A stretch of 63,579 bases of DNA, counting the filler, from Basidiobolus ranarum (Eukaryota), in assembly GCA_040143965.1 (NCBI GenBank). It is 39 parts of 39 records of this genome, joined end to end, with 100 filler letters (N's around TTAATTAATTAA, not from the genome) between each part and the next. Parts side by side here need not be neighbours in the genome. Positions count along the whole stretch, not along the records: positions 60,426 to 61,952 come from JASJQH010011797.1; 38 more parts are not named here. The stretch is one strand, 5' to 3'. Positions within the stretch are counted from its first letter, which is position 1. Every line of letters begins with the position of its first letter. A program made the translations under genes and the position numbers. Below the pieces are notes generated by a model that did not search any database, was not told the DNA's origin, and was given only the letters and a program-made list of their open reading frames with translations. Positions 26,200-63,579 of this stretch are shown one piece after another.

Positions 26200-27733
26200 G
26201 AGTTGATGCCATAAAAATATATTAACAATATCAACAAACAACTCCCAATGTTGCCAATACTTATCAGGCAGAAATCTTGCCATGATTCCACTTGATTATA
26301 TACAAATCTTGTACTTCCAGTCTTTGCATTTGAATAAATGCCTAGATGAGTGGATATTGATGGGAGTCCTGGTAAAATATGACGGTATCTTGACCTTTTC
26401 AAGCATTTTCCCAATTGATTCAAACTTTGATCCTATATCAAATGGCACATTCATGCTGAATTTTCCACTATATAGCTGAGTAAGTGGTATTGAAATGTTG
26501 TTGAATAGGAAGCACATAGTGCCCAATGTAAAGCTCTGGCTCCAGTTGATCCCCTTTAGCAATATAATCTTAGGCTTATGGCCATTACTAAGATTGGTGT
26601 TAGACTGACTATTTGGTGAATTGATATCAGTAATCATGTTGAAATCTGACCAGACTCCTGATGGTGAAATCATGGAGTTTAGTTTTGTATTTGGATAGTA
26701 GTAATGCATATGCCTGAAAGAGTAGACTCCATTGATTTGACAAAATCTACAGCACGTTAGTGCATTGTGCCCCAAAAGCCTCCAATTTTACTGATGGCAG
26801 AAGTGTCACCAATACACACAAAGATATTAGTTTTGACAAAGTACCACCCTTCTGAACCCCACTAGCTAACCATTCAAATTCCACAATTAAAGGTGCCAAG
26901 AAGCTATCTATAAGCACTGGAGATTTAGGTTCAGATATGATGGATAGTATTAAAATAATCTGACCCTTATACTGCTCAGAAGAGGGAAGATTTAAGTTAA
27001 TTAAAATTATTTGCCAGCAATCCTTTCCAATGGAATATTTGTTTGGTGAGAAACCATCCCAAGCCAATGCAAACATATGACCATACTTATTCTCAAAGAA
27101 AACTTGACTTTTCAGATTCCAGTAGTGATGTCCATCTAGTATATTGCTAATACCATCAGCTTCATGGTGAGTACATTGGTATTGTATCAATGATCTATAT
27201 TTGGGTGATTTCATCAAAACTTTAAGATGCGGAAACAATGGTATGTAAGCAAAAAATGAGCAATATCTACCTGATTCAGTATTTGCCATTTGATGGTTTA
27301 ATTACTGAAGGATTATAAGTAATAAAATTGACAAGTGTTTTTCACTTGTACAAGGTCTGTGACAAGCAACAGTTGCCAGTCACCTGTGGTAAAAGTGTAA
27401 GAAAACCAAAAAACACCTGGTTGCTAAGATTGGATTGAAATCTCCACTCTTTAATAATCAAATCTGCTACTTTACAGTAAGTGTTATGAGTGGACTAGTG
27501 CTTGTGAATAAAAAAGAGTCAGTAACAAAACCATTGTCTTCTCCTTCAACTTTGGATATAATATCATCAGTACTGAAATAATCAAGGTCAACATATAGAA
27601 ACATGTCCCTAAAGGGGTCTGGCCCTACTAGTTTGACCAAGTTTGCATTTCTACCTATATCATTCTGGTCATATAACTGTGGTACCTCCATGGTATCTTG
27701 ACTTTTGGCAGTGTTACCAAAACTTTTAGGCAA
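26200..27733 (-). mobile_element. Degenerate CACTA transposase
   Basis: AYIPL, DGF, LINLNLP, HNALTCCRFC, FKCKDW. Confidence 0.9.
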
Positions 27734-27833: not shown

Positions 27834-29258
27834 GAAGTCATGTACTGTTTGCACACAATTGGCAATCACTGAATCAGGTAAATATTGTTCATATTTGGCT
27901 TACATACTGTTGATTCCCCATCTTAAAGTTTTGATGAAATCACCCAAATATGGAACATTGATCCAGTACCAAAGTACTCACTGTAAACCTGATGGTATTA
28001 CCAATATACTTGATGGATATCACTACGAGAATCTGAAAAGTCAAGGTTTCTTTGAGAGAATGTATGATGATGCATTTGCATTGGCTCTGGGTGGTTTCTC
28101 ACTAAACATATATACCATTGGAAAGGCTTGCTGGCCAATAATTTTAATCAACTTAAATCTTCCTCCTTCTGAAGAGTACAAGATTCATAATATTTTGATA
28201 CTATCCACCATATCTGGACCTAAATCACCAGTACTTATAGAGAGCTTCTTGGAGCCTTTGATTGCAAATTTGAAAGGTTGTCTAATGGGGTTCAGATGGG
28301 TGAATATTCTATTAAAGTTATTATCACTGTATTTATTAGTGACACTCCTGCCATCAGTAAACTTGGAGGTTTTTGCAGGCACAATGCACTATGTTGCTGT
28401 AGATTTTGTCAAATCAATGGAGTTTACTCTAACAGGCATACACATTCCTACTATCCAAATGCAGCACTAAGCTTCATGATTTTACCTTCACAAGCCCAGT
28501 CAGATTGCAATTGATCACTGATATCAATGCACCAAATAGTCAGTCTAATGTGAAACTTGGTATTAGCCATAAGACTAAGATTGTATTGCCAAAGGGGATC
28601 AGCTGGAGCCAGAGCTTCCCATTAGACACTATGAACTTACTATTCAACAACATTCTAATACTATTTACCCAGCTATATAGTGGAACATTCAATATGAATG
28701 AGTCATTCAAGATAGGATCAAAGTTTGAATCAATTGGGAAAATGCTTGAAAACATCAAGATAACATTATATTTGACCAGGACTCCCATCAATATCCACTC
28801 ATCTTGGCATTTATTCAAATGCAAAGACTGGAAGTATTGGATTTGTATATATTCAAGTGGAATTTTGAAAAGATTTCTGCCTGATAAGTATCCACAACTG
28901 TGGGAGTTGTTTGTGGATATTGTTAATATATTCTTATGGCATCAACTCACTTTGGCAGATCTCAGGTAGATATAGCAACTGAGCAAAGATTTTGTAATTG
29001 GATATGAAAAATTTTATTACAGGTTTAAAGAAGATAGACTGAATCTATACTGGTATTCAATATATTCCCTGCTGCATCTTTCACATTACTTAGAAATTAT
29101 AGGCCCTTACTATACATTTTGGAAGATTCCAATGGAGTACACCTGTGATGAAATGAAGCTCTGGGTGAAATTGATAGTATTACCATATGATAATCTGATG
29201 AACAATGTATCTACAGAATCATTGATGAATGTGATTCAATGGTTTAAGAAGACTCCAG
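27834..29258 (+). mobile_element. Degenerate CACTA transposase
   Basis: WPIILINLNLPP, SGPKSP, DTPA, CCRFC, PLDTM, PMEYTC. Confidence 0.9.
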
Positions 29259-32731: not shown

Positions 32732-33308
32732 AGAACTTCTAAGTTTGTAAAAATATTCTAAGTAAATTCCGATTGAGAATAATAGATAATATCTTAGTGA
32801 ATTATAAGATAACTAAGTACTAAGCTATATATGACTATATAGGTGTTTAGGCAATGCTAATTTCAACGCTAAGTTGGTAAAAATATTCTAAATATATTCC
32901 AATTTGGTATCATGGGTGATATCTTAGTTCAATATAGAGTAACTAAATACTAGGCTGTATATTGTTAAAGTATTTGGGAGCCTGTTGGAAGTGGTTGGAG
33001 AATTAGACAATTTGGTGGTTTTCACTTATTGATTTATTGAGTACAAAGCTGATATTTAAACTTTTTCATGATATAAGCACACTAACATGTAGAATGTGTT
33101 AAGGTAGGCCACAGAAACATGTGCACAAAGTTTGAGGCTTCTAGCACAGGTTTGAAAAATCTACATATTGGGGAACTTCTAAGCTGGTAAAAATATTTGA
33201 AGTATATTCCAATTGAGAATCATGGATGATATCTTAGTGAAGTATAAGATAACTAAGTTCTAAGCTATATATAACTACATAGGTGTTTAGGCAATGCTAA
33301 GTTCAACA
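32732..33308 (-). repeat. Stack of family A LTRs (two partial, one full at 32963-33308)
   Basis: Three nested or adjacent copies of the family A LTR; the full copy abuts a PPT. Confidence 0.85.
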
Positions 33309-33565
33309 CTCTCTCTTCACCAAACAGTCATATATACTAATCCTAAGGAAGGTCTGAATTTCTCAAATTTCTGTCTTGCTAATGGTGTAGTTAATGTATT
33401 AGCAATCATGTCATCAGTAGAACAATATGATAAGTCAATATGCTTATTCTCTATAGTCTCTCTGATAAAACAACATATAATACCTATATGTTTACTCCTT
33501 TTATGTAATGTAGGATTTCTAGCTAATTTGATATAACTCTGATTATCTTGATATATTGTATTTGG
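33309..33565 (-). mobile_element. Copia RNase H end and PPT
   Basis: QDNQS.IKLARNP..HKRSKHI...DMIA.TLT.PL. Confidence 0.9.
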
Positions 33566-34363: not shown

Positions 34364-35266
34364 AAAGTCAAGATACCATGGAATTACCACTGTTATATGA
34401 TCAGAGTGATGTAGGTCAAAATGCAACTTTGGTTGAACCAGTAAGTCCAGACAATTATGAGGACTTGCTGCTAGATATTGACCTTGGTTATTCCAGTACC
34501 AGTGGCAGAAAATCAGAAGTTGAAGAAGAAGACAACGGTTTTGTTATGGACTCTTTGCTGTTGGCAAACATTAGTCCATCCATAACTCTTACTGTAAAAG
34601 AAGCAGCTTTGAATATTCAGGAGTAAGGAGTTCAAACCAATCTTAGGAACCAGGTGTTTCTTGGTTTTCTTACACTTTTACCACAGTTGATTGGCAACTG
34701 TTGCTTGCTAGAGACCTGGTAAAAGTCAAAAACACTTGTCAATTCCATGACTTATAATACTTCAGTAATTAAACTACCTTCATGTCCAAATGGTAGATTG
34801 GCTTTCACTGGTGATCCAAAAAACCTGAAGTCATGTACTGTTTGCACACAATTGGCAATCACTCAATGATATAAATATCAATCATATTTGGCTTACATAC
34901 TAGTGATTCCCTGTCTTAAAGTTTTGATAAAATCAGTTAAACATAGATCATTGATGCAATACCAAAGTACTCACCATAAAGCTGATGGTATTACTGAAAT
35001 ACTTGATGGATATGACTGCCAGAATCTGAAAAGTAAAGGTTTCTTTGAGAACATGTATGATCATGTATTTGCATTAGCTCTGGATGGTTTCTCACTAAAC
35101 AAATATACCATTGGAAAGGCTTGCTGGTTAATAATTTTAATCAACTTAAATCTTCCTCTTGCTGAACAGTATAGAAGTCATAATATTTTGTTACTCTCCA
35201 ACATATCTGGACTGAAATCTCCAGTGCTTATAGATAGCATCCTGAAGCCTTTGATTGTGGAATTTG
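34364..35266 (+). mobile_element. CACTA transposase, N-terminal half
   Basis: AYILVIP, LALDGF, LINLNLP. Confidence 0.88.
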
Positions 35267-35995
35267 TACAATGTAGTGTTGCATTTTATGCAAACACTTT
35301 ATTGCAAAAGTTATCCACAAATCAGCCTTTATTAGCTAAAGAAAGAAACTTGCAGAAAAAGAGCAAAGCAGAAGAAACTAAAATTTCAATTATCAACAGC
35401 ACTGCCGATACTATCTAAACATGCACAAAACCATGGGATTAAAACTCAGCCAAGCCACAGCTTTCCAATGAATCAAGAATTACTCTGATTGGACCATTAT
35501 TGGGCAAGTTAGAGTCACATCTAGAACAACCAATATCTCTGACCTAAGCATGAAGAAAAACAGCTAAGCCACTTTTTTAAGCAAAATTGTTATTTAGCAG
35601 CTTAAGTCGGCGATATCTCAGGATCTAGCCAATGAGAAGCACTGAAAATTTGCACATGCATCAATCATCATACTTTGCTGATGTGTACCAAATATCTAAG
35701 CCACAGCTGATGTAATTGCGATTTTATCACTGATTCTTTATTTTCTAAGCCACATTTAACTAGTTAACATAGGACTTGTTCTCAGTGATAGTGCCAGATT
35801 GTGCTGTATATATCATATTGGATAAAGTATTCTAAAATTTATGCGGCACAATTTGGCACTATCCATCACCCTCTGGCATGATCAATTTCAATCACNNNNN
35901 NNNNNNNNNNNNNNNNNNNNNNNNNNNNNNNNNNNNNNNTTAATTAATTAANNNNNNNNNNNNNNNNNNNNNNNNNNNNNNNNNNNNNNNNNNNN

Positions 35996-36496: not shown

Positions 36497-37526
36497 TGTT
36501 GAAGTTTATTGTCTTTATCATATTTGTTACCTCTACCTTTATAAGCCTAGCTTTTTCATATATCACATACAATTTAGTTAAGATTACTTAGTCAAATATC
36601 ACTTAACTGCAAATTGGAACATATATTATATATATATGTGAATAATGTCAGAATCAGCAATTCTATATTGGAGATTTCAAACTTCTCCAAATTGCCCCAA
36701 AGATAGCTCATTTTACTCCCACAGATGTTCTGAACACAACCCCAGCGTTAGTTTTCTGTATTTCCACCAAAATGTATAAATGCTTTGTTTCTGGACAATA
36801 AATAATTATCTCACAAAGCTATTCACAACTCCACCTTTCTAAAGTTCCTCCAAACAGCCCATATTTTCCCAATATGTTGAAGCTTATTTTTGTGATCATA
36901 TTTATTGCCTCTTCTTTATACACATAACTATTTCATATATCATGTGTAAGTTAGTGAACATTATTTAGTCAAAAATCTCTTAGCTGAAAATTGAAACATA
37001 CATTTTATATATATATGCATTATTTGAGAATTAGCAATTTTATATGGGAGATTTTAAACTTTTCCAAATTGTCTCAATAATAGCTCATTTACTCTCACAG
37101 ATGTTCTGAACATTACCCCAGTGTTAGTTTTCTGTGTTTGTACCAAAATATATTAATACTTTATTTATGGACAATAATTTAATATCTCACAAGCTAATCA
37201 CCTCACTATTTTATAAAGTACCACAAAGCAGCTCATATTTCCCATTAAGTGTGATGTATGAAGCAGTTTAGTGTATAACTATAGACTTAAAAAATGTGAT
37301 GAAGATAAGAAGCTCCAACATCTTAGGGTTAGGGTTAGGCTTAGGGGGGGATGAAAAGCACCAGATGGTGTGGACTTTATTTAGCTTAAATACTAATCTA
37401 AACAAAGTGACAATCTGTTGAAGTTTATTGTCTTTATCATATATGTTATCTCTATCTTTATACACCTAACTATTTCATATATCACATATTAGTTAGTCAA
37501 CATTATTTAGTCAAATATCACTTAGC
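36497..37526 (+). repeat. Three family B LTRs (36497-36874, 36875-37247, 37416-37526)
   Basis: Each starts TGTTGAAG; the first two are directly head-to-tail. Confidence 0.88.
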
Positions 37527-38628: not shown

Positions 38629-39157
38629 TGTTGAAATTAGCATTGCCTAAACACCTATATAGTCATATATAACTTAGTACTTAGTTATCTTATAATTCAC
38701 CAAGATATTATCCATTATTCTCATAAGGATTTTACTTAGAATATTGTCACCAACTTAGAAGTTCTCAGATATATAGATTTTTCAAACTTGTGGTATAAGC
38801 CCCAAACTTTGCACACATGTTCCTGGGACCTTTCTCCGCACACTCTACATATTAGTTTGCTTACATCTTGACAAAACTATAAATGTCAACTTTCTGCTTA
38901 ATAAAGCAATAAGTGAAAACCACCAATTCCTCTAATTCTCCAAACCACTTCCAACAAGCTCCCAAATACTTTAACAGGTTATGAGCCCCAAGCTTACACT
39001 CTCTGTAATGTCCACTTCTCAAATTTATGAAACTTTTCCCGCTTTTGAAAAATTGGATAAAACCAGTATCAAGTTTGGAAAATTAAAATGAAAATGCTGC
39101 TGCAAGAAAAAGAACTTTGGGACACTGTTGTAGGAGAAGAAAACAATGCAAAACTAT
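38629..39157 (+). mobile_element. 5' end of Copia family A: LTR 38629-38976, PBS 38977-38988, gag from 39008 (older partial LTR at about 38443-38620)
   Basis: TGTTGAAA...TTTAACA followed by GGTTATGAGCCC; gag MSTSQIY..VWKIKMKMLLQEK. Confidence 0.93.
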
Positions 39158-40887: not shown

Positions 40888-41535
40888 ACCTTCTTGGCAG
40901 TTTTAGCTCTTGAACATTGAATTAGCAATTTGTCTTTAACATTAAGACAAATTGTGTTGAAGGCACTTTGTTCTTTTTTAACCTGGAGTAAAACTTTGGT
41001 TTCAGATAGTTTTGCATTGTTTTCTTCTCCTACAACAGTGTCCCAAAGTCCTTTTTCTTGCAGCAGCATTTTCATTTTAATTTTCCAAACTTGATAATTG
41101 GTTCCATCCAATTTTTCAGAAGAAGGAAAAGTTCCATAAATTTGAGAAGTAGACATTACAGAGAGTGCAAGCTTGGGGCTCATAACCTGTTAAAGTATTT
41201 GGGAGCCTGTTGGAAGTGGTTTGGAGAATTAGAGGAATTGGTGGTTTTCACTTATTGATTTATTGAGTAGAAAGTTGACATTTATAGTTTTGTCAAGATG
41301 TAAACAAACTAATGTGTAGAATGTGTTAAGGAAGGTCCCAGGAACATGTGCACAAAGTTTGGGGCTTTTAGCCCAAGTTTGAGAAATCTATATATCTGAG
41401 AACTTCTAAGTTGGTAAAAATATTCCAAGTAAATTCCAATTTGGGATAATTGATAATATCTTAGTGAATTATAAGCTTACTAAGTATTAAGCTATATATG
41501 ACTATATACGTGTTTAGGCAATGCTCATTTCAACA
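40888..41535 (-). mobile_element. 5' end of Copia family A: LTR 41188-41535, PBS 41176-41187, gag
   Basis: Perfect GGTTATGAGCCC PBS; gag EKLDGTNYQVWKIKMK. Confidence 0.94.
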
Positions 41536-42411
41536 GGATCTATGCTTAAAATACACACATTCTGGATCAAATTTTGATCTGATGGGATATTCAGATGAAA
41601 ATTGGGGAAGAGATATTGAAGACAGGAGATCTACAGCTGGATACTTATTTCTTTGCTATAAGGGAGGTATTTCTTAAAATTCAAAGAAACAACCTACCGT
41701 AGCACTTTCAACAACAGAAGCTGAATACATGACTGCATGTGAAGCAACAAAAGAAGCAATATGGTTAAGAAAACTTTTAACTGATCTGGGTTATTCTCAA
41801 AATTCACCAACTACAATATTCAAAGATAATCAAAGTTGTATCAAATTAGTTAAAAATCCTATGTGTCATAATAGAAGCAAACACATAGATATCAAGCATC
41901 ACTTCATTGGAGAGACTATAAAGAATAAGTTGATTGACTTAACTTACTGTTCTATAGAAGACATGATTGCTGATATACTAACCAAACCATTAGCTAGACA
42001 GAAATTTGAGAAATTTAGACCTTTATTAGGATTAATTTGTATGACTATTTAGTTGAGGGAGAGTGTTGAAATTAGCATTGCCTAAGCACCTATATAGTCA
42101 TATATAACTTAGTACTTAGCTATCTCATACCTTGCTAAGATATTATCAATTATTCTCAATTGGAATTTACTTGGAATATTTTTACCAACTTAGAAGTTCT
42201 CAGATATACAGATTCTTCAAACTTGTGCTAGAGGCCCCAAACTTTGTGCACATGTTCCTGGGACCTTACTTAACACATTCTACACATTCGTTTGTTTACA
42301 TCTTGACACCGCTCTAAAAGTCAACTTTTTACTCAATCAATCAATAAGTGACAACCACTAATTCCTCTAATTCTCAAAACCACTTCCACCCGGCGCCTAA
42401 ATCCTTTACCA
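41536..42411 (+). mobile_element. 3' end of Copia family A: RNase H, PPT 42053-42063, LTR 42064-42411
   Basis: STTEAEYM..EAIWLRK..DNQSCI..SKHIDIKHHF..ADILTKPL; TTGAGGGAGAG then TGTTGAAA. Confidence 0.94.
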
Positions 42412-43112: not shown

Positions 43113-44047
43113 TTACTTTTGTTGTCTCCTTGATATTTCCACAGAAGGAACTTTGCTTGAACCTCTGCACTGAGTTGGTTGGTTCAATCCTGCTGAAGTT
43201 TCTCTACCTTGGCTAGCATAATTTGTGGCTTGAGGTTGATGTGCTGTGGTATGTGTTGGCTCATTTGGTCTAGTTTGCGGTTTGTTTGTATCTACAGTCT
43301 CTTCTTCAGATGTGGAGCCTTCACTTAATGGGTCAACCAGCCATTGCTGCTGGCATGCAGCTCTACGCGTCAACCCGGAATGTCTCACTTGAGGTTTGTG
43401 CTTGACAGTTATTGCTTCTTCAACCATGGTAGAAGCTTCATCTCTTTCAACTGGCCGCCATGACCTCTGTTGCATGGCAGAACGTGTTGGAGCAAGTCAT
43501 CTGCCTTGAGGTTTGTGCCTGACAGTTATTGCTTCTTCAACCACGGTAGAAGCTTCATCTCTTTTGACTGGCTGCTGTGACCTCTATTGCATGGCAGAAC
43601 GCGTTGGAGCATATTGTCTACCTTGAGGTTTGTGTTTGACTGTTATGGTTTCCTCAAGCTTGGCAAGAGCTTCACTATCTCTCTCAAACACCCATTGTCT
43701 TGGTCTTGTGGGGGTATGCGTAGTAGTGGATTGCTGTCTTAGTAGATCGCTCTCAGGTGTCAGATCTTCATCCAACAAAGTGGAAGGTTCAATAATTCTT
43801 GTGGTTGGCCTTTGTTGCTGTCGCGTGGTTGTACACATTAAACCACTCCTTGGAGCTGACTCTTCTCCAGATGTAAAAAGCTCACTTGTTGGTTTGGTTA
43901 AATTGGGTAAATTGCATGCGACAACGCGTGAATATGCAGGCCATCCTCTCTCTGGTTCTTCATTGACTGCTTGCTCTTCATCAAAAATGGGAGAAACATC
44001 ACGGACTCTTCCAAGCTGGCATTGCGGTTGATGTGTACTACTAGCTG
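43113..44047 (-). pseudogene. Decayed ORF for a T/S/E/R-rich protein with 39-aa (117-bp) tandem repeats
   Basis: Repeat units start at 43390, 43507 and 43624; EASTMVEEAITVKHKPQ recurs; in-frame stops. Confidence 0.6.
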
Positions 44048-46067: not shown

Positions 46068-47033
46068 TCAATAATTGTGTACATTTTGGAGATGTTTCAT
46101 GAATAGGCCTATACTAGCCCAATTGCCATTTGCTTGCACAAACCCAGGGTTAGCCACATGAAATACGTCAAGATCCTTCAGAGTAACACCTGATTTTTGG
46201 TTTTTCCATGATTGGCTCAAATCTAGGTGAATTTGGGCAAGATTACACACAGTTTCCAAAATGTTAAACCACTCATCATCAGAGCAAGTGACAGCAGCTC
46301 TGACATTCAGAGTTTTTTGGTTAGCTGGATTTCCTATGAGATTTCTACCTTCATGTGCCCAAGCAATTTTGGGTTGTTGTGTAGGCTTAATAGTCCAACA
46401 CATATTCTGCTCTGCTAGATTGTCATGGTGATGTTCATTTGTATGGTGTGGGATTGATTGAAATCCCATATGAGAATGGACAGAGGGTGCAGCATGTTGC
46501 TGTAGCTCAAGTACAGCATTCTAAAGATCTTGTATCATTGTTGAGTAACTCTCTAACTGTTGACTAGTTACTTCCAAACTCTGCATTAATTGCAATATTC
46601 CAGCATTATTACTTGTCATTGCCTGTATAGTAGCTTTGTAGCTTTCACTTATGATTGCATACATATCCTTATGGTGTTCTGCCTGCAATTCCCTTGTTGT
46701 AATAATTCTATTGGAATTTTCTATGGACGGTTGTTCAATAGTGGGCAAAGTAGCCATTTTGGAAGTTGATGGTCTTGCTGGTGTTTTGGTTGAACTTTGC
46801 TCAACAATTGACTGACTACATAATTGGGGGATTACAATCTCTTCACTCGCACTATCACTGGAAAGGAACACATCTGGTAAATTAATTAATGCTTCATCAT
46901 TACTTGAGTTAGTTTTCAGCTTGTTAATGCCTTCCAAAGTGGATAGTGGATTGTTAGACTGCTCATCAATTAAGTCCTCTGTTCTTGCTAGGTTTTTTCC
47001 TTTTCTGCCAGCGGGCTTTGGCTTAGAAGCCAA
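46068..47033 (-). pseudogene. Best-preserved copy of multicopy unknown ORF2 (probable CACTA accessory gene)
   Basis: Two long ORF pieces (46521-47033 and 46068-46469); homologues in four other contigs. Confidence 0.7.
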
Positions 47034-47405
47034 TTTTGATTTAGATTTTAAATGCTTTTAGAATGTCATTGGTATGTTCAGATGGTAAACTTGGCGTAAT
47101 GCAATTGCTTAGTAATTGCTTATAATAAACCAAAATTGCCATCCATTACTGGAAATATCTTGTAAATTCCCTGATGACTCATCTGTGGCACTGTCTCAGA
47201 ATCAGCTGATGATATTGATGGGCTATACCTAAAATACCACCCATATGTAGGAGGTGTTCTTTTTTCTACAATATCCTTCTCATGCCACAACTCAAACATT
47301 TAAAGNNNNNNNNNNNNNNNNNNNNNNNNNNNNNNNNNNNNNNNNNNNNTTAATTAATTAANNNNNNNNNNNNNNNNNNNNNNNNNNNNNNNNNNNNNNN
47401 NNNNN

Positions 47406-51359: not shown

Positions 51360-52189
51360 ACACCGGCATAGATCCAGTCTATCTTCTTTAAACCTGTAAT
51401 CTAGTTTTTCATATCTTATTACAAAATCTTCACACAGTTGCTGTATCTGCCTGAGATCTGGCAATGTAAGTTGATGCCGTAAGAATATATTAACAGTATC
51501 TGCAAACAACTCCCAATGTTGCCAATACTTATCAGGCAGAAATCTTTTCAAAATTCCACTTGAATATATACAATCCAATTCTTCCAGTCTTTGCATTTGA
51601 ATAAATGCCTAGATTACTGGATATTGATAGGAGTCCTGGTAAATATGATGGTATCTTGACATTTTGAAGCATTTTCCCAATCAATTCAAACTTTGATCCT
51701 ATCTCAAATGGCTCATTCATATTGAATTTTCCACTATATAACTGAGTAAGTAGTATTGGAATGTTGTTGAATAGTAAGTATATGGTATCTAATGGGAAGC
51801 TCTGGCTCCAGCTGTTCCCCTTTAGCAATATAATCTTAGGCTTAGGGCTAATATCAAGTTTGATGTCAGACTGACTATTTGGTGAATTGATATCAGTGGT
51901 CATATTGAAATCTGACTGGGCCCTTGACAGTAACATCATGAAGCTTAGTGTTCTATTTTGATGGTAGTAATACATATGCCTGTTAGAGTAAACTCATTTG
52001 ATTTGACAAAATCTACAGCAACATAGTTCATTGTGCCTGCAAAAACCTCTAAGTTTACTGATGGCAGGAGTGTCACCTATACATACAATAATAGTAGCAT
52101 TAATAAAATATTCAACCATCTGAAGTCTATTAGATAACCATTGAAATTCTGCAATCAAAGGCTCCAAAAAGTTTTCTATTTGCACTGGT
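51360..52189 (-). mobile_element. Degenerate CACTA transposase, C-terminal half
   Basis: GDTPAISKL, CCRFC, PLDT, YEKLDYRFKEDRL. Confidence 0.9.
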
Positions 52190-53154: not shown

Positions 53155-53817
53155 TCTTAACAGAAACTTGAGGATTGTTATTGTAGGAAAACTGTCGCAG
53201 TTTTAATCCATTTGGTGTTGACCGTTTACTTACCATCATAAAATTGGCAAGTTAGATTTGATTTTAATCAATTTTTCAGTTTCAGGAGTGAAATTTCAAG
53301 ATCTTGCAAAATAGTTGCAAATGAATGGCTAAAATCTCAGAGAACTATGGATCAACACATGTGCAAGAAACATAACTGAAATTTTACACAATTACCACTT
53401 GAACACTAATTTGTCACCTTCAAAATCTCTAGCCTCTTTGATATATATATATCAAATTTATTGGTGACACTCCTGCCATCAGTAAACTTGGAGTTTTTTG
53501 CGAGCACAATGCACTATCTTGCTGTAGATTTTGTCAAATTAATGGAGTTTACTCTAACAGGCATACTCATTACTACTATCCAAATACAACACTAAACTTC
53601 ATGTTTTTACCATCAAGAGCCCGGTCAGATTTCAACATAATCACTGATATCAATTCACCAAATAGTCAGTCTAACATCGAACTTGGCATTAGCTGTAAGC
53701 CTAAGGTTATATTGCTAAAGGGGATCAGATGGAGCCAGAGCTTCCCATTAGGCACCATGCACTTACTATTCAACAACATTCCAATACTACTTACTCAGCT
53801 ATACAGTGGAAAATTCA
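53155..53817 (+). mobile_element. Internally deleted CACTA element: candidate left terminus plus transposase fragment (from about 53455)
   Basis: 53155-53320 is the reverse complement of about 62085-62247; then GDTPAISKL, CCRFC, PLGTMH. Confidence 0.75.
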
Positions 53818-54477: not shown

Positions 54478-55444
54478 TGTTAAAGTATTTGGGAGCTTGT
54501 TGGAAGTGGTTTGGAGAATTAGAGAAATTGGTGGTTTTCACTTGTTGATTTATTGAGTAGAAAGTTGAGGTTTATAGTTTTGTCAAAATGTAAACAAACT
54601 AAAATGTAGAATATGTTTACAAAGGTCCCAGGAACATGTGTGCAAAGTTTGGGGCTCCTAGAACAAGTTTGAAGAAATCTATATATCTGACAACTTCTAA
54701 GTTGTTAAAAACATTCCAAGAAAATTTCAATTGAGAATAATGGATAATATCTTTGTGAAATATAAGATAACTAACTAATAAGCTATTTATGACCATATAG
54801 GTGTTTAGGCAATGCTAATTTCAACACTCTTCCTCAACTAAATAGTCATATAAACTAATACTAATAAAGGTCTAAATTTCTCAAATTTCTGTCTAGCTAA
54901 AGGTTTGGTTAATATATCAGCAATCATGTCTTCTGTAGAACAATAAGTTTAGTCAATAAACTTGTTCTCTATAGTCTCTCTAATGCAGTGATGCTTAATA
55001 TTTATATGTTTGCTTCTATTATGAAACATGGGATTTTTAGCTAATTTGATTCAACTTTGATTATCTTGAAATATTGTTGTTGGCAAATTTTGAAAATAAC
55101 CCAAATCTATTAAGAGTTCTCTTAACCATATTGCTTCATTTGTTGCTTCACAGGTAGCCATGTATTCAGCTTCTGATGTTGAAAGTGTGACAGTAGGTTG
55201 TTTCTTTGAGTTCCAAGAAATAGCTCCATGACAGCAAAGAAATAAGTATCCTGTTGTAGATCTCCTGTCTTCAATATCTCTTCCCCAATTTGCATCTGAA
55301 TATCCCATCAGATCAAAGTTTGATCCAGAATAGGTGTATTTTAAGCATAGATCCACAGTACCTTTCAAATATCTGAAAATCCGCTTAACTGCTATGATTT
55401 GATCAGATCCATAATTTTGAAGATATTGGCACATAACTCCCACA
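54478..55444 (-). mobile_element. 3' end of Copia family A: RT/RNase H, PPT 54827-54837, LTR 54478-54826
   Basis: KRIFRYLKGT, GYSDANWG..DRRSTTGY, ISWNSKKQ; full LTR. Confidence 0.94.
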
Positions 55445-55544: not shown

Positions 55545-55696
55545 ATACATTGACAGACTAGGTTAAGGTTCCCTAGCAATATAGGCATAGCATACAAGGA
55601 CTGGTAGCTTAGTGGTTAGAGCACCTTGCTAGAGTGAAGGAGGTCCCAGGTTCAATTCCTGGCCAGACCAATATTTCTCCCTAAATAATTTCAACA
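55545..55696 (+). mobile_element. 3' part of the tRNA-bearing TRIM LTR (3' or solo LTR)
   Basis: Near-identical to 61667-61818; ends TTTCAACA and is followed by unrelated DNA rather than a PBS. Confidence 0.9.
55598..55670 (+). tRNA. tRNA-like sequence inside an LTR (loop CT-AGA-GT, short variable loop; probably a Pol III promoter module, not a decoding tRNA)
   Basis: GGACTGG-TA-GCTT-AGTGGTTA-GAGC-A-CCTTG-CTAGAGT-GAAGG-AGGTC-CCAGG-TTCAATT-CCTGG-CCAGACC-A; 73-nt cloverleaf with A and B boxes. Confidence 0.85.
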
Positions 55697-55819
55697 AAAG
55701 ATAGAGTTAAGAATATATCTGCTAACAATATTTTCAACCTTCTGGTATAAAAAAATTCAGCTTTGCGGAGATTTGTAGTAGGATTAAGCTTTATTACTGA
55801 ATAATTAAGTTAACACCAC

Positions 55820-57071
55820 TATGCCACACTACAACATCATGAGAAGGACAAAAAAGAACACCTCTTATGTGAAGGAGGTTTTTAGGTATAGCCCATTAAT
55901 ATCATCAGCTGATTCTGAGATGGTGTCACAGAAGAGTAATCAGGGGATTAACATGATGTTTCAGGTAATTGGTAGCAATTTTGGCTTATTTCAAGCTGTT
56001 TCTATGCAATATAATTACACCAAGTTTAGCATCTGAGAATTTCAATGCCATTCAAAAATTATTCAAAATCTCAATCAAAATTGGCTTCCAAGCCAAAGCC
56101 TGCAGGCACAAAAGGAAAAAATTTGGCAGGAACAGAGGACTTGATTGATGAGCAGTCTAGCAATCCACTATCTACCTTGGAAGGCATTAAAATTCCTGAA
56201 ACTAACTCAAGTAATGATGAAGCATTAATCAATTTACCAGATGTGTTCCTTTTAAGCAATAGTGCAAGTGAAGAGATTATAATCCCCAAATGTGTTGTAG
56301 TGGGGCAGCATTGCACCCATTGGTAGGCTGACTTAGTTCCACTCCAAGCTCATATCATTACTATTGCACTATTTCTATTTTTTTATCCATATTTGACTTA
56401 CCCACATTTTCTAGCCAATCACATTGCACCTTTAGTATTATCCCCTATTATTTCAGATTTATCAGTATTAACCCACCTTAGCCCTATTATTTTCTGCAAA
56501 ATTCTTCAATCCTCCTGAAAATTCCACAAGATTCTTAGAGTATTTGATGATTGATAGAGTTTTGACCAATCAAAATTTGATTTTGCTGGAACATTCCATG
56601 ACTTTCTGGATCATTCTACAACCTTCCAGAACATTCTGTGGATTATTAAACTTTTGATTGATGGTGATATCACAACACAAGATCACCACCAATAGAATTC
56701 TCTGGAAATTTCCAGAAATTGTCATTAGTAATCATTTCTACCATAAGAGAAGTATAAATAGGAGCCATATCCTTTGAAATAAAAATTATCCTGGTTTTCA
56801 ACTAACAATTACTACTTGTGAGCACCCCTTATTTTCATCACCACATACAAGATCTTTGAACAGGAAGCTCAACAGAGACTACTAAATTGCTGGGGCACAT
56901 GAAAGTAGAAATCTTATAGGAAAACTGGTAAACCAGATGACTCTGAATTCCAGAGCTGCAATAACTTGCTCTGATGATGAGTGGTTTAACATTTTGGAAA
57001 CTGTACAGAATCTTGCCTAAAATCACCTGGATTTGAGTCAATTGTGGAAAAATCAAAAACCAGGCATTACT
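55820..57071 (+). pseudogene. Decayed ORF2 copy, interrupted at about 56291-56836 by an unrelated, possibly LTR-like insertion
   Basis: ASKPKPAGTKGKNLAGTEDLIDEQ..; 56890-57071 matches the reverse complement of about 46185-46365. Confidence 0.75.
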
Positions 57072-57171: not shown

Positions 57172-57711
57172 AGCACCAACAATGGTGATGAATTGTCCAG
57201 AGCGGACCTCAGTTTCTTTGAGACCCTTGTAGACAGTGACACCAGCACAAAGGATAGGAGCAGCCTCAATGAGAGGAAGGTTATCAGGAATACGAGCAAC
57301 GTGGGAGGCACGAGCAACACAGTATTCTTGGAAAGTACCATCAACACTGTAACCAGACAAATTTTGATTAGGACAAACATTTTCACGACCTTGGATGCAA
57401 TATTCGCAGTTCATACAGGCAGAGTGAAGGCAAACAACGCCGACAGCGTCACCAATCTTAAAATCCTTCACGTTGCTACCGAGGGCAACAACTCGACCAG
57501 CGCCTTCATGACCACCAACCAAAGGAAGTTTGCTAGCCATAGGCCAGTCATTCTTAGCGATATGAAGATCGGAATGGCAAACACCAGTGTATTCAATCTT
57601 AACGAGAACATCATCAGGTCCAGGAGTAGGGACAGAGATGGTCTTGATCTCAATAGGTTTAGTGTGAGATTCAATGACAGCAGCCTTTTGAGTCTTGGGA
57701 ATTTGGCACAT
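57172..57711 (-). CDS. ADH1: Zinc-dependent (MDR) alcohol dehydrogenase, ADH1-like, 3' truncated by gap
   Basis: GVCHSDLH, GGHEGAG, CMNCEYC..G.E.VC, GYSVDGTFQEY, APILCAGVTVYKGLK; TATA-like run about 45 bp upstream. Confidence 0.93.
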
Positions 57712-59405
57712 ATTTACGAATATCGTATGGGAAGGGTTTTCGTTAATCCTCTAATATATATACTACTCAACTTGTGGACGTTCTAGTTCGGTCGAGCGTC
57801 AATTATAATTTACCCAGTCAAGCGATGTGACGGGTTTACGAAATGCCGATTTCACTTATTCCGATATTTACCAATCCCAATAGAAATTTTATTGACATTT
57901 TGCGAAGATAACCATTCACATAATTGTGTTAGTATTATCATACCGAAACGACTTCGAAATAATTCAACAATGCACAGATTTGCCTTGTTCATAGTTTAAT
58001 ACCACTGAGTCCTATCTAACACCTCATTTATGAGATCTTGACGATTTCTCATTAATAATTGGTGGAATGCGAATACGTGGCTGATGGCTATATCTAATCC
58101 CATGAGATTGAATCTGGTTTCTCGACTTGTCTTAAAATGTATTGTTTGGATTGGGGAATTTGTGGATGATCGCATCAACAATCTGGATTTAGCCACTTAA
58201 AAATATTGCCTGTAATCAATGTGAGTTTTACACTTGTTCCGTCGGACCTCGGCTCAAGGTACTATTGATCGTACCGGAGGATATATCATTTTTTGAATGC
58301 GCGATCCAATACAGCACGACCTGGCACTATAGTGGCGAACGTGTCCAAAATGAAATATTTTAAAATTAAAAACAAAATACGTTGAGAAAAAACCATTTGG
58401 TAATTACATCGGCAACTACATTGAATTTAATCCAATTCTGATATATGCTTTAACCGACGATATGCTGTTAACATCAAATTTAGCTTGTTTCAATCAAAAA
58501 AAACCACCACAAGATATAATTTCAAAGCCAAATAAATGACTGTTTCTATTTATTTTCTAGAATTTACATAATATGTGCATGACCATTTAATGGTTGTGCA
58601 TATCAAGAACAATACGTCCAGCAATCTTACCGGCGTGCATATCTTCATATACTTGAGGAATGGTTTCCATATCTTGAACCTTGTAGTGACACTTGACCNN
58701 NNNNNNNNNNNNNNNNNNNNNNNNNNNNNNNNNNNNNNNNNNTTAATTAATTAANNNNNNNNNNNNNNNNNNNNNNNNNNNNNNNNNNNNNNNNNNNNCA
58801 AATTTGCTGGTGTCAAATAGGAATGATTTAGTTTAATTAAATGAAGATAGCTAATTTTAGAAAATATCTTTATCCTTAAATTACATGAATCAGCTATATC
58901 TGAATTAGTACACATTACCAAGGCAACGAAATCACATCCATAATTTTACCATAAGCCATATTAACGAGGCCAAAGTTGGTAAGAATACTGAACAAGAGCA
59001 GTGAATTTAGGCATCAAAAGCTGTAAACTTTACTCTAGGGTCATGGCAAAATATCAATTGGTGGTACATGGGGGTAATGGAAGGTACATGCATTAAAGAG
59101 CACGTTACTACAAATACAAAATCATAAAAATACAGGGGGAAAATGTGTCTCATCCAGTGAGAAGTGAACAATTGAGAAAGTTATAAGAGATGGATGATAC
59201 ACTGCAGTTATAGTTAAGCAAGTTACGTATGAAGAACAAAGTTAAAATTTAGCAGATACTCAAACCATAACAAATAAATTACTGAAGTTAGGAATGTTTA
59301 AAATTGAATTGCGAGGAGAGCACCTTAACCAGTGAAGAGGATTACGGATAGAGGGCATTTCTAATGTGAAAGAAGGGCGAGAGTGGCGGATTTAAGGACG
59401 TGAGT

Positions 59406-59795
59406 CTACATGGCAGTAAACACCAACTCATCATAGCTTTCCATTTGTATCGTTGAGACTTCTTTGGGCCCGTTAGATGGTCTTAGAAATTGGTACACTT
59501 TTAATACTAGCTCTGCTAGTTCCTCTGCTTTAGTAGGCGACATCACAGTCTCTTTGGGACAATCGATGAGAACATTCTTTTCATCATAAATACTAAACTC
59601 TGTGATAGGTGAGGCTGCTGGAGTGGGGATTTCTTGGAATGCTCGCAATATATTACTCAGTGATTTCGAACGAGAAAGGTTGAGTGTTGCGTGAACAGTT
59701 GTGTTTGAGATATCTCGCGAAAAGTTAGACTTGACAGTTTGTCCGCGAAGTAGAGAATTTTTAGTGTCGATAGTTAAGCACGGTTTAGGCGACAT
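59406..59795 (-). CDS. Hypothetical 129-aa S/T/P-rich protein
   Basis: Complete ATG-to-stop ORF in CpG-intact sequence with no other copy in the window; TATAAA about 105 bp upstream; no recognised domain. Confidence 0.45.
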   Translation of the reverse strand: MSPKPCLTIDTKNSLLRGQTVKSNFSRDISNTTVHATLNLSRSKSLSNILRAFQEIPTPAASPITEFSIYDEKNVLIDCPKETVMSPTKAEELAELVLKVYQFLRPSNGPKEVSTIQMESYDELVFTAM

Positions 59796-60425
59796 GATTG
59801 ACTAGTACAAAGTATTCGCAGAAGTTTGATTGATGACTAGCAAACGCGATATACGAAAATAATATGAAGTTCCAATTCAAGGTGAGGAGACTACCGACTT
59901 TATACATTTTAGTTCATGATCTCAGTGTTTCTAAGAACAGGTTTAATTCCCTTGAAGTTTAAGGCAAGTCATCGGAATTTTCCTTTTAAAACTTGTTCAG
60001 ATGTAATAGTTGGGTGATGGGCCATGAATGATGGGTGGTCGACGGGTTGGTGGCACTCATTGGAAAATGATAGAAAAATACATTATCTGGCTTTGTATTA
60101 CTATGATTGAAATCGGTTATGGCTTAATTTAATTATCTATATATATCCTTATCTTAATTTTATATGCTCTCCTTTTCTCTCCTGACTTTATCATACTTGT
60201 CGCAGTAGTATAGTGAAACTTTGGGGTTGAGCCTCTTTCCGACTTTCAACTTGACTAACTCATAACTCTCTGTTTACTCACTATACTAAATCACCCCCAT
60301 CACTCATTTGACACCAACAAGTTTTNNNNNNNNNNNNNNNNNNNNNNNNNNNNNNNNNNNNNNNNNNNNTTAATTAATTAANNNNNNNNNNNNNNNNNNN
60401 NNNNNNNNNNNNNNNNNNNNNNNNN

Positions 60426-61134
60426 CCAATATTGGTAATCTAACTTTTGATCATGTAACATTGATCTTGCCATCTCCACTATGGTCCTATTAGCATATTC
60501 TGCAACTCCATTTTGCTGTGGAGTATAAGGTACAGTTTTTTGTTGCTTAATTCCATGTTTAGAGCAAAAACTAGCAAAGTCTTTAGAGCAGTGTTCACCA
60601 CCATCATCACTCCTTAGTACCCTTATTTTTTTGTGCCAATTCTTTCTCCACCATTGCTTTGTAGTGCTTGACCATAGTTAAGGCTTCAGATTTTCATTTG
60701 AGGCAGCATACCCAAGTATACCTTGTTTTGTCATCAATCAAGGTCATAATTTACGTTTTCCCACCCAGTAAGATGTTTTTCATGGGTGCATAGAAGTCAG
60801 AATGAATCAGGGAAAAATTCTGAGTGGATTTGATCTCTCCAGAGCGTGAAAACAGCTGGCTGTGATGTTTTCCATATAGGCAACCTTCACAAAGATCCAA
60901 TTTAGTGATATTTCCAGTTTCCAAGCCTGAAACAAGCTGATTTCTTATTATTTAGGTTAGTTTTTGTTCACCAATGTGGCCTTGTCTTCTATGCCATGTT
61001 TGACAGCTTATTTCACCAGTTGTAGCCAAGCTTGCCTGCGCAGATGGCAACTCATTGATTTCTAGCTTGTATAAGATTTTAGTTTTGATCCCAGTACCTA
61101 ATTTGGTTTTATTCTGATCTGTGATAGTGCATAC
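60426..61134 (-). mobile_element. Degenerate Copia GAG-pre-integrase/integrase
   Basis: WHRRQGH, CEGCLYGK, LIHSDF, LIDDKTRY, RSDDGGE, VPYTPQQNGVAE. Confidence 0.92.
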
Positions 61135-61336
61135 TGTTGAAATTATGTAAATAGCAACTCATTATTTAGTAGTTAGTTTTTTCATATTCTGATTATTTAG
61201 CACTCATTTCTGTCATTCAAAAAACATGTGTTTATTGCTCTAATTGATAGAAATATTAATTAGATTACTTTGACCAATTTTCACTATTCTCTCAAAACTT
61301 TTCCAAATCACCACAAATTTTCACTCATGTTTAACA
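61135..61336 (+). repeat. 202-bp LTR-like element
   Basis: TGTTGAAATTA...GTTTAACA termini like family A; interrupts the Copia coding sequence; no clear TSD. Confidence 0.55.
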
Positions 61337-61344
61337 GGCATATT

Positions 61345-61952
61345 TGTTATGATCTAAGCATGTCCAATAGTCCTATTTATAGTAAACTAAAAATAGGACA
61401 TATTCAATTCAATAAAACTTAAGTGTCTAATACACAAATCCAATTTTGTCCAAAACACTTCCAAATCCCCTAAATGCTTTTATCAGGTTATGAGCCCCGT
61501 ATAGTGTTAAATCCGGAAATCCTGCTTGAGTGAGAATGTTGAAAGTCTGGTGACTTGTGGTACAAGCAGTAATTCCCAAAGAGGAAAATATGGAGTATGG
61601 TGACTGCATCTGAACACAAAGTCCAAGGCCAATCAGTTGCTTGTATAGCTGAAATGCCAAAGTACTATACATTGACAGACTAGGTTAAGGTTCCCTAGCA
61701 ATATAGGTGTAGCATACAAGGACTGGTAGCTCTGTGGTTAGAGCACCTTGCTAGAGTGAAGGAGGTCCCAGGTTCAAATCCTGGCCAGACCAATATTTCT
61801 CCCTAAATAATTTCAACAGGTTATGAGCCCCAGTTAGTGCTAAATCCAGAAATCCTGCTTGAGGGGGAATGTTGAAAGTCTGGTAGCTGGTGTTACAAGT
61901 AGTAATTCCCAAAGAGGAAAATATAGAGTATGGTGACTGCATCTGTACATAA
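61345..61952 (+). mobile_element. Tandem TRIM: heterologous LTR 61345-61485, PBS/PPT 61486-61536, LTR 61537-61818, PBS/PPT 61819-61869, LTR 61870 to gap
   Basis: Two GGTTATGAGCCC PBS directly after CA ends; two PPTs (GAGTGAGAA, GAGGGGGAA) directly before TGTTGAAAG; 333-bp period; no coding capacity. Confidence 0.92.
61720..61792 (+). tRNA. tRNA-like sequence inside the TRIM LTR
   Basis: 73-nt cloverleaf; D stem GCTC/GAGC, T stem CCAGG/CCTGG, B box GGTTCAAATCC; three differences from the copy at 55598. Confidence 0.85.
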
Positions 61953-62052
61953 NNNNNNNNNNNNNNNNNNNNNNNNNNNNNNNNNNNNNNNNNNNNTTAA
62001 TTAATTAANNNNNNNNNNNNNNNNNNNNNNNNNNNNNNNNNNNNNNNNNNNN

Positions 62053-62247
62053 CAGGAAAGCTACGTTCATAAAGAATCATGCACAACTATTTTGCAAGAT
62101 CTTGAAATTTCACTCCTGAAACTGAAAAAATTGATTAAAATCAAATCTAACTTGACGATTTTATGACGGTAAATAAACAGTCAACCCCAAATGGATTAAA
62201 ATTGTGATGGTTTTTGTACAATAACAATCTTCAAATTTCTGTTAGGG
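62053..62247 (-). mobile_element. Candidate CACTA left terminus (CCCTAACAGAAAT) inserted into another transposase copy
   Basis: Sharp junction at 62247 into the transposase N-terminal sequence; same segment at 53155. Confidence 0.6.
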
Positions 62248-63500
62248 TTATATGACCAGAATGATAAAGGCAGAAATGCAACTTTGATTGAACCAGTACA
62301 TCCAGACAATTTTGAGGACTTGCTGCTTGATGTTGACCTTGGTTATTCCAGAACCAATGGTAGTATATCAGAAGTTGAACAAGAAAATGCAGTTTTATTA
62401 TGGACTCTTCATTATTGGCAAACATTAGTCCACTCATTACACTTATTGTGAAGTAAGTGGCTTGGATTATTGAAGAGTGGAGAATTCAATCCAATCTTGG
62501 AAACCAGATTTTTATGGGTTTTCTTACACTTTTACCACAGTCAATTGGCAACTGTTACTTGCAACAGACCTGGTACAAGGGCAAAACATCTGTCAATTGA
62601 ACAACTTATTATCCTTCAGTATTAAACTATCTTCATGTCTAAATGGTTGTTTGGCTTTCACCAGTGATCTGAAAAGCCTGAAGTCATGTACTGTTTGCAC
62701 CCAATATTTGGCTTACATTGCTGGCCAATAATTTTAGTCAACTTAAATCTTCCTCCTTCTAAATGGTATAAGAGTCTTATTATTTTGATACTATTCATCA
62801 TATCTGGACCTGAATCACCAGTGCTTATATACAGCTTCTTGAAGCCTTTGATTGTGGAATTTGAATAGTTATCTAATGTGGTTCAGATTGGTCAATATTT
62901 TATTGAAGCTAATATCATTGTATGTGTTAGTGACACTCCTGCCATCATTAACTTGGAGGTTTTTGTGGACACAATGCACTATCTTGCTGTAGATTTTGTC
63001 AAATTAATGAAGTTTTCTCTGACAGGCATATGCATTACTACTATCCAAATACAAAACTCAACTCCATGTTTTACCATCAAGAGCCTGGTCAGATTTCAAC
63101 AAGATCACTGATATCAATTCACCAAATAGTTAATCTAACTTCAATCTTGGTATTAGCCTTAAGCATAAGATTATATTTCTAAAGGGGATCAGCTGTAGCC
63201 AGAGCTTCTAATTAGGCACTATGCACTTACCATTCAACAACATTCCAATTCCACTTACTCAGCTATATGGTGAAGATTTAGTATGAATGAGTTATTCAAG
63301 ATATGATTAAAGTTTGAATTGATCGGGAAGATGCTTAAAAAAGTCAAGATACCAACAGAATTTACCATAACTCCTATCAATATTCACTCATCTTGGTGTT
63401 TATTCAAATGCAAAGACTGGAGTTATTGGATTTATTTATATTCAAGTGGAATCTTTAAAAGATTTATTCCTGATGCATATTGGCAAAATCGGAAGTTAAT
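62248..63500 (+). mobile_element. Degenerate CACTA transposase with internal deletions
   Basis: WPIILVNLNLPP, SGPESP, DTPA, FKCKDW. Confidence 0.9.
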
Positions 63501-63519
63501 AATTGTGTACCTTTTTGAG

Positions 63520-63579
63520 TTGGTTCATGAATAGGCCTATATTAGCCCAATTGCCATTTACTTGCAAAAACCCAGGATA
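63520..63579 (-). pseudogene. ORF2 C-terminal fragment, convergent with the transposase
   Basis: Matches about 46093-46152 (NPG..QANGNWA.IGLFM). Confidence 0.8.

Follow-up and report, generated by a model that had tools for sequence, protein, structure and literature searches.

What kind of element places long terminal repeats (LTRs) around an internal region of only 51 bp and carries a complete tRNA-like sequence inside its LTRs? The question is raised by a chain of repeats at 61135-61952 of a 63,579-nt stretch of Basidiobolus ranarum DNA (assembly GCA_040143965.1), which was analysed as a whole and is called the window here. A previous reading made from the sequence alone, the sequence-only reading, had proposed a tandem terminal-repeat retrotransposon in miniature (TRIM), transcribed by RNA polymerase III (Pol III) and mobilised by Copia proteins. 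It had also given the name Helenus for TRIMs with tRNA-like LTRs, and this name is correct. Helenus comprises TRIMs with tRNA-derived sequence in their LTRs and forms, together with Cassandra and Ajax, the group TRIMp3 (Kojima 2024, PMC10886601). We consider the element to be probably a non-autonomous, non-coding miniature LTR retrotransposon of the Helenus/TRIMp3 kind, mobilised by Copia and perhaps transcribed by Pol III. The window contains the cis anatomy of such an element, signals common with a Copia family, a tRNA-like sequence in two of two copies, and a second locus with the same LTR end.

The window consists of 39 B. ranarum contigs, from 1541 down to 1527 bp and ordered by length. 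The contigs are joined by 100-nt linkers of N/TTAATTAATTAA; adjacent contigs are not genomic neighbours, and features touching a linker are cut by the assembly. The contig of the element covers 60426-61952 (1527 bp) and the linker starts at 61953, so position 61952 is a contig end without biological meaning. In this contig we found, in order, a Copia pol fragment, an LTR (LTR-A), an internal region, a second type of LTR (LTR-B), an internal region, and the start of a further LTR-B. The features are as follows, with the primer-binding site (PBS) and the polypurine tract (PPT) of each internal region, and with the second locus of LTR-B, called copy B.

60426..61134, minus strand: degenerate Copia pol fragment (gag-pre-integrase/integrase, with stops and frameshifts), with the open reading frame (ORF) pieces WHRRQGHIG..., HSDFYAPMK... 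and ...VPYTPQQNGVAEYANRTIVEMARSML.
61135..61485, plus strand: LTR-A, 351 bp, tRNA-less, TGTTGAAATTA...TTTTATCA, homologous to an autonomous Copia LTR.
61486..61536, plus strand: internal region 1, 51 bp, with PBS GGTTATGAGCCCC at 61486-61498, a spacer of 26-27 nt and PPT TTGAGTGAGAA at 61526-61536.
61537..61818, plus strand: LTR-B, 282 bp, TGTTGAAA...TTTCAACA, with a PPT before it and a PBS after it.
61720..61792, plus strand: tRNA-like sequence, 73 nt, anticodon position AGA, detected by ARAGORN and by Rfam RF00005 (54.2 bits, E 1.6e-10).
61819..61869, plus strand: internal region 2, 51 bp, with PBS at 61819-61831 and PPT GAGGGGGAA at 61861-61869.
61870..61952, plus strand: next LTR-B, first 83 nt only (the contig ends), with 8/83 differences from 61537-61619.
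55545..55696, plus strand: copy B, the last 152 nt of LTR-B, beginning at a contig start, with its tRNA-like part at 55598-55670.

LTR-B was found where the sequence-only reading had placed it, and its termini TGTTGAAAG...TTTCAACA form a perfect 8-bp terminal inverted repeat. The 5′ end of LTR-B is fixed twice by the junction of a PPT with TGTTGAAAGT, and its 3′ end is fixed by the junction of the final CA with the PBS, as well as by copy B, which diverges at the identical base. The predicted PBS after the LTR and PPT before the next LTR are likewise present, with the PBS at 61486 and 61819 and the purine tracts GAGTGAGAA and GAGGGGGAA abutting each TGTTGAAAG start, so that the PPT lies directly before the LTR. 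The internal region occurs twice, at 61486-61536 and 61819-61869, with seven of its 51 bases differing between the two, inside a direct repeat (61468-61619 and 61801-61952) with 88% identity and the expected spacing of 333. Tandem Repeats Finder reported no array over 58000-63579, because only about 1.4 units are present. LTR-B, a 51-bp non-coding internal region that is too short for an ORF, and the start of a following LTR-B, visible for 83 nt, together have the architecture of a TRIM. A non-autonomous element of TRIM type with a complete tRNA-like unit in its LTR is, as far as anatomy goes, what the contig contains. The complete unit of LTR-B, internal region and LTR-B would measure about 615 bp.

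The tandem array is not uniform, since the first LTR is Copia-like and tRNA-less. The third LTR is cut by the contig end. Position 61345, from which the element had been drawn, is not its boundary, because the leftmost LTR runs from 61135 to 61485. LTR-A ends in TTTTATCA immediately before the first PBS, and it shares 223 of 313 aligned bases with the LTR of an autonomous Copia element at 38629-38976 (alignment score z 9.4 in 200 shuffles; the input ranges of this score test were offset by one or two bases, with no effect on the outcome). LTR-B showed no similarity outside the termini to LTR-A (z 0.0) or to the Copia LTR (z 0.5) in the same test. On its left side, the chain adjoins, or sits inside, the degenerate Copia pol; the left flank is CATAC (61130-61134), and coding does not continue past about 61158. 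LTR-A also contains an imperfect 39-nt hairpin at 61366-61404, with arms that are 85% complementary.

Copy B differs from 61667-61818 at five of 152 bases. It ends at the same CA, followed by the unrelated flank AAAGATAGAG... (right flank AAAGA), and is a solo LTR or a 3′ LTR. Beyond it, the stretch 55700-56300 resembles an ORF-bearing repeat at 46521-47057 on the minus strand (…KPKPAGRKGKNLARTEDLIDEQSNNPLSTLEGI…), which has no Pfam match.

The PBS GGTTATGAGCCCC follows the LTR without a gap in four of four junctions, two in the TRIM (61486 and 61819) and two in autonomous Copia elements. The 14-nt word CAGGTTATGAGCCC, which spans the LTR end and the PBS, has four exact occurrences in the window, two in the TRIM and two after the autonomous Copia LTR, where 0.30 are expected, and none of 100 shuffles reached four. 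The reverse complement of the PBS, GGGGCTCATAACC, shows a CAT anticodon in the context of a 7-nt loop, flanked by G/C runs. Three G-C pairs closing the anticodon stem are a hallmark of initiator tRNAs. The PBS would therefore be complementary to the anticodon stem-loop of a Met-CAU tRNA of the initiator type (tRNA-iMet), judging from this motif. The tRNA-like part of the LTR itself was rejected as the primer, as the PBS complement has no match in LTR-B at up to four mismatches.

The dependence on Copia that the sequence-only reading had assumed is backed by a Copia family of the window whose PBS is identical, whose PPT is nearly so, and whose LTRs have the same termini as those of the TRIM. 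The following parts of this family were found.

38629..39157, plus strand: autonomous Copia 5′ end, with LTR 38629-38976 (348 bp, TGTTGAAATTAGC...CTTTAACA), PBS GGTTATGAGCCCCA from 38977 and gag from about 39008.
40888..41535, minus strand: second copy of the same Copia 5′ end, with LTR 41535-41188, PBS and gag (DUF4219/Retrotran_gag_2).
41678..42100, plus strand: Copia 3′ end of the same family, with RNase H C-terminus, stop codon, PPT TTGAGGGAGAG and LTR start TGTTGAAATTAGC at 42064.
20331-20348, 54817-54834 and 33299-33316, minus strand: further Copia junctions of PPT and LTR, found by the PPT/LTR-start pattern.

The two Copia LTRs are 90% identical, and the Copia gag begins about 30 nt beyond the CAGGTTATGAGCCC word. 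With up to two mismatches, the PPT/LTR-start pattern gave eight matches in the window against 1.17 expected, and none of 100 shuffles reached eight. Two of the eight belong to the TRIM and four to Copia 3′ junctions; one is a Copia LTR start with another left side, and one is unrelated. Three of the Copia junctions have TTGAGGGAGAG or TTGAGGAAGAG before TGTTGAAATT, and the fourth, more diverged, precedes TGTTGAACTT. The TRIM junction reads TTGAGGGGGAA then TGTTGAAAGT, compared with TTGAGGGAGAG then TGTTGAAATT in Copia, and the TRIM PPTs GAGGGGGAA and GAGTGAGAA resemble the Copia PPT GAGGGAGAG. In sum, the TRIM and the Copia family have in common an identical 14-nt PBS word, a near-identical PPT, the 8-nt LTR start, and a similar sequence over the last ~20 nt of the LTR. 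Because PBS, PPT and LTR termini are all shared, this Copia family is the likely helper of the TRIM, which can thus be named on more grounds than PBS similarity.

A comparison of the N-terminus of the putative helper gag with the protein collection, limited to longer proteins, gave one match, 72% identical, and no relatives were confirmed in viral contigs. The RNase H C-terminus, compared with 1.84 billion representatives, gave 65075 matches at E up to 0.001, with best single-stretch identities of 58-64%. Nine of these matches were looked up, and the two with named organisms come from Termitomyces sp. and Powellomyces hirtus, both fungi. The candidate helper is thereby supported as a fungal Copia, with no finer placement. 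The Copia 5′ LTR at 41535-41560 starts right after ...AAGCATAGATCC, nested in the oppositely oriented pol of another Copia; the intact counterpart of the interrupted pol stretch is found in the contig at 53918-55444 (55340-55370).

The 73-nt cloverleaf that had been drawn at 61720-61792, ending 26 bp upstream of the LTR-B end, was recovered by both ARAGORN and Rfam, and its score lies well above the Rfam gathering score for tRNA of 29. Its box A is at 61727-61737 (TAGCTCTGTGG) and its box B at 61771-61781 (GGTTCAAATCC). The tRNA-like part of copy B reaches 56.6 bits. These are the only two tRNA matches in the whole window, and both are within LTR-B. Loss of the tRNA-like part from most LTRs, as after a one-off insertion of a short interspersed nuclear element (SINE), had been named as a finding that would speak against the proposal; the part is present in two of two LTR-B copies covering that stretch. 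The motifs TAGCT...TGG of box A and GGTTC of box B are kept in both. The 467 nt of 61486-61952 contain no run of four or more T (T4) on the sense strand, which fits, weakly, the need of Pol III to read through the element; in copy B, the first T4 run occurs 35 nt past the LTR end.

A mechanism can be proposed on these grounds, in which U3 would be 61537-61719 and R/U5 would extend from the tRNA-like start to the LTR end. The element would retain only the cis needs of a Copia-type reverse transcriptase and integrase, which are LTR termini, PBS and PPT. Within the 5′ LTR, Pol III would start at the tRNA-like unit (about 61720) and would transcribe the remaining 99 nt of this LTR, then the core of 51 bp and the 3′ LTR of 282 bp, giving about 430 nt without a T4 terminator, until it stops at a T run in the flank. 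Such an RNA would carry the segment from tRNA to LTR end at both ends, and this is the repeat needed for strand transfer. The RNA would then be packaged, and Gag, reverse transcriptase and integrase of Copia would act in trans, reverse transcription being primed by a tRNA-iMet fragment (half-primer) as in Ty5 and copia and followed by integration. The mixed chain of LTR-A and LTR-B would most likely have arisen secondarily, by recombination between related elements through the common core. For the Pol III step itself, we see about an even chance.

The element resembles the published fungal Helenus families in several respects. Both have two short LTRs that include a tRNA-like sequence with its A and B boxes, and a non-coding internal region with PBS and PPT; in both, the tRNA-like part of the LTR is not complementary to the PBS. 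Published Helenus elements measure 311-1263 bp, a range that includes the ~615 bp expected here, and their box A and box B motifs are conserved (PMC10886601). The dominant primer of fungal Helenus is the iMet anticodon loop, in common with Copia families, and fungal, Copia-dependent Helenus elements have 5-bp target-site duplications (PMC10886601). Another point of agreement is the label 'tRNA-Ser-AGA' that tRNA finders give to the tRNA-like part, which is among the predictions inflated by Helenus in Puccinia, Uromyces and Cronartium (PMC10886601). Here, the likeness is judged on the described features. The main differences are the host, which is outside the published range, and the matches to the putative Copia helper, which extend beyond the PBS to the PPT and the 8-nt LTR termini. 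The internal region is also shorter, with 51 bp compared with the 85 bp given for a Selaginella family ('only 85 bp' in the main text).

Fungal hosts of Helenus described so far are Pucciniales, Agaricus and Coprinopsis (Table 1 of PMC10886601) and Amylostereum (text of the same paper). The screen behind these records started from Repbase LTRs and then took in relatives of the hosts (PMC10886601), and for this reason early-diverging fungi were not systematically covered. In our literature searches on Helenus, TRIMp3 and Basidiobolus retrotransposons, no Helenus was reported from Basidiobolus or Zoopagomycota; among the Basidiobolus papers listed, none deals with TRIMs, going by the title and the opening of the abstract, and PMC13570524 merely cites Helenus. 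The suggestion that the family or host lineage may be undescribed therefore stands for the host lineage and for this particular family, as far as the searches go, but not for the type, which has been published, fungal Copia-dependent families whose PBS matches the iMet anticodon loop included (PMC10886601). The element appears to be a Helenus-type TRIM of the fungal sort that depends on Copia and is primed by the iMet anticodon, in a new host phylum.

Other known systems were compared as well. Cassandra and Ajax follow the same principle of a TRIM whose LTRs each hold a small-RNA gene and, with it, an internal Pol III promoter, and tandem LTR-internal-LTR-internal arrays are said to occur in Cassandra. 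However, their LTRs carry a 5S rRNA-like sequence instead of a tRNA-like one. Membership in either group was rejected, as no Rfam 5S match was found in the contig (E up to 1) or in the window (gathering scores). LTR-11_DR, a Helenus of zebrafish, is similar in that tandem arrays are reported, and different in being an animal element with the tRNA 3′ end as primer, Gypsy dependence and 4-bp target-site duplications (PMC10886601). Ty5 of yeast and copia of Drosophila, of the Copia superfamily, are primed from the anticodon stem-loop region of tRNA-iMet and not from the 3′ end of a tRNA (PMC10886601). A PBS of this kind is found here in both the autonomous Copia and the TRIM; Ty5 and copia differ from the TRIM in being autonomous and protein-coding, without a tRNA-like LTR.

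The SINEs derived from tRNA (SINE2) share with LTR-B a tRNA-like head that has A and B boxes, the form of a short non-coding parasite and presumed Pol III transcription, but in SINEs the tRNA head comes first and the machinery of long interspersed nuclear elements copies them. Membership among SINEs was rejected on the position of the tRNA-like part, which begins after 183 nt of a unit delimited by TG...CA, PPT and PBS, and is followed by 26 nt without a SINE body or tail. Retrozymes are likewise non-autonomous LTR elements with a small structured RNA in their LTRs, which in their case is a hammerhead ribozyme. The sole hammerhead match (Hammerhead_HH10) scored 19.3 bits, where the gathering score is 75 (E 0.88), which is a chance result, and membership was rejected.

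Searches for further copies gave no matches. Two spurious minus-strand ORFs read through the element, at 61430-61684 and 61754-61951, were aligned and the alignment was compared with the protein collection; none of the 13 candidates scored at E up to 10. Pattern scans of metagenome contigs (tRNA end to PBS, and a 29-nt tRNA-like stretch) and of viral contigs (the 29-nt tRNA-like stretch, and box B followed by PBS) returned zero matches.

Several observations weigh against a mobile, Pol III-transcribed Helenus. The source contig is short and comes from a very fragmented, repeat-rich assembly. LTR-B is present in two of the 39 contigs, and neither locus shows a full LTR-B, internal region and full LTR-B; the sole full LTR-B sits in a mixed chain led by another LTR type. 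Among the 39 contigs there is no element with both flanks within one contig, so no target-site duplication is readable. The units of the chain are 10-14% divergent, so the copies are old and possibly inactive. The predicted match of the PBS to tRNA-iMet is drawn from the anticodon-loop motif. The cloverleaf is the minimum-free-energy fold of the main copy, yet its stability is like that of shuffled sequences (z -1.1; copy B -0.07). Likewise, the missing T4 runs are only weakly significant: the probability of zero runs is 0.17 in 5000 mononucleotide shuffles, and among 1716 equally long background windows, 4.5% have none.

The last two points bear on whether Pol III is involved at all. A TRIM that depends on Copia could be transcribed by RNA polymerase II (Pol II), the tRNA-like segment being a passenger pseudogene or SINE head without a promoter role, and we consider this unlikely, though it accommodates part of the data. 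The 183 bp upstream of the tRNA-like part (61537-61719) would suffice for a U3 promoter, and in the Rfam alignment the tRNA-like part has two non-standard pairs, A-A in the acceptor stem and G-G in the anticodon stem, besides lacking special fold stability. Moreover, the Pol III activity of Helenus is stated to be experimentally unvalidated (PMC10886601). Nevertheless, three of the 73 tRNA-like bases differ between the copies and none of the changes disrupts the TRGCY, YGG and GGTTC motifs, so that both copies keep intact A and B boxes. The sense strand is free of T4 runs, whereas LTR-A has six and the two Copia LTRs, like LTR-A of Pol II type, have two and one. The same design arises independently in many lineages (PMC10886601).

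It is very unlikely that the chain is a mis-assembly through repeats or a satellite-like local duplication of 333 bp, in which LTR-B never moves as a two-LTR element. Such an origin would be in keeping with a 1527-bp contig among 39 repeat-rich contigs of near-equal length, and with two LTR types joined via a common internal region; a direct tandem of LTRs with a period of ~377 occurs in another contig, so LTR arrays do form. However, the differences between the units, at seven of 51 and eight of 83 bases, show that they are not a collapsed or duplicated read path. LTR-B also has exact boundaries: a PPT precedes it twice, a PBS follows it, and copy B, an independent locus whose flank is unrelated, stops at the same base. 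Its termini match the helper Copia. The chain is old, in view of the 10-14% divergence of its units.

Serine tRNAs carry a long extra arm, whereas the variable loop here is short, with 5 nt, and therefore the tRNA-like body with its AGA anticodon is not that of a serine tRNA. That the LTR amplifies the dosage of a functional tRNA gene (serine, anticodon AGA) is barely credible, despite tRNA model scores of 54-57 bits and a few Helenus families left open as possibly tRNA-encoding in PMC10886601, given this 5-nt loop in a 73-nt molecule, the A-A and G-G stem mismatches, and the judgement that most such predictions conflict in isotype and anticodon and are non-functional (PMC10886601). The two 'tRNA-Ser(AGA)' predictions of the window should be annotated as LTR-borne pseudo-tRNAs. 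Elements of the Helenus type inflate the number of predicted tRNA genes and disperse Pol III promoters across genomes.

With a Copia-dependent Helenus as the favoured identity, the origin of its LTR can be considered. One 51-bp core of PBS, spacer and PPT joins the Copia-like, tRNA-less LTR-A on one side and the tRNA-bearing LTR-B on the other. It is possible, although we rather doubt it, that a TRIM with a Pol III promoter was born independently in this early-diverging fungus (Zoopagomycota), beside its relative of the Pol II type. The tRNA-like unit lies 6 nt upstream of the conserved LTR end without a SINE body or tail, and LTR-B and LTR-A share only their termini; for these reasons the structure would suggest that a tRNA gene or pseudogene was captured directly, the whole of U3 being replaced, instead of the entry of a SINE into an LTR. 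The SINE-into-LTR route has been proposed for Helenus, and for its fungal families an age of ~130 million years was inferred from rust fungi. Alternatively, fungal Helenus may be much older than ~130 million years, or may have moved between fungal phyla with its Copia helper. The Basidiobolus family would extend the Helenus kind to a distant fungal phylum and would provide a second, independent fungal system, and the mixed chain of LTR-A and LTR-B is a lead on the relation between Pol II-type and Pol III-type TRIMs.

Another Copia family, at 36497-37524 (PPT TTGAGTGAGAG, LTR start TGTTGAAGTTTATTGTC), has two LTRs that follow each other directly, head to tail, without an intervening internal region (period ~377), and a third LTR start at 37416. 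Tandem arrays of LTRs seem to recur in the B. ranarum genome.

The rest of the window is almost all transposon debris, including pieces of Copia RVT_2, integrase and gag as well as Transposase_21 fragments. The latter are many diverged pieces of one DNA transposon family of the tnp2 type (Transposase_21), found at 21723-22373, 24035-24463, 26296-27301, 27835-28969, 34870-35418, 51532-51993, 53442-53816 and 62053-63579, with a conserved C-terminal block (…NSPNSQSN…LLKGI.WSQSF.L.TM…). This looks like a high-copy family in the genome.

The sole clear host gene in the window is the intron-free N-terminal half of an alcohol dehydrogenase (ADH_N, zinc type) at 57172-57750 on the minus strand. Two proteins of Basidiobolus meristosporus match it with 88% and 87% identity, and those of B. 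ranarum with 80-83%; the next matches reach at most 61%, leaving aside two fused Phytophthora proteins at 44%. This single gene points to a Basidiobolus-like fungus as the host, provided that all contigs belong to one organism. In the protein atlas, this fragment gave generic clusters of prokaryotes and a Copia reverse transcriptase gave generic clusters of plants, and neither helped to place the host. At 43381-43674, three tandem units of 117 bp, 80-90% identical, lie within a long minus-strand ORF without Pfam match, and the contig that holds them is the most GC-rich of the window (41%).

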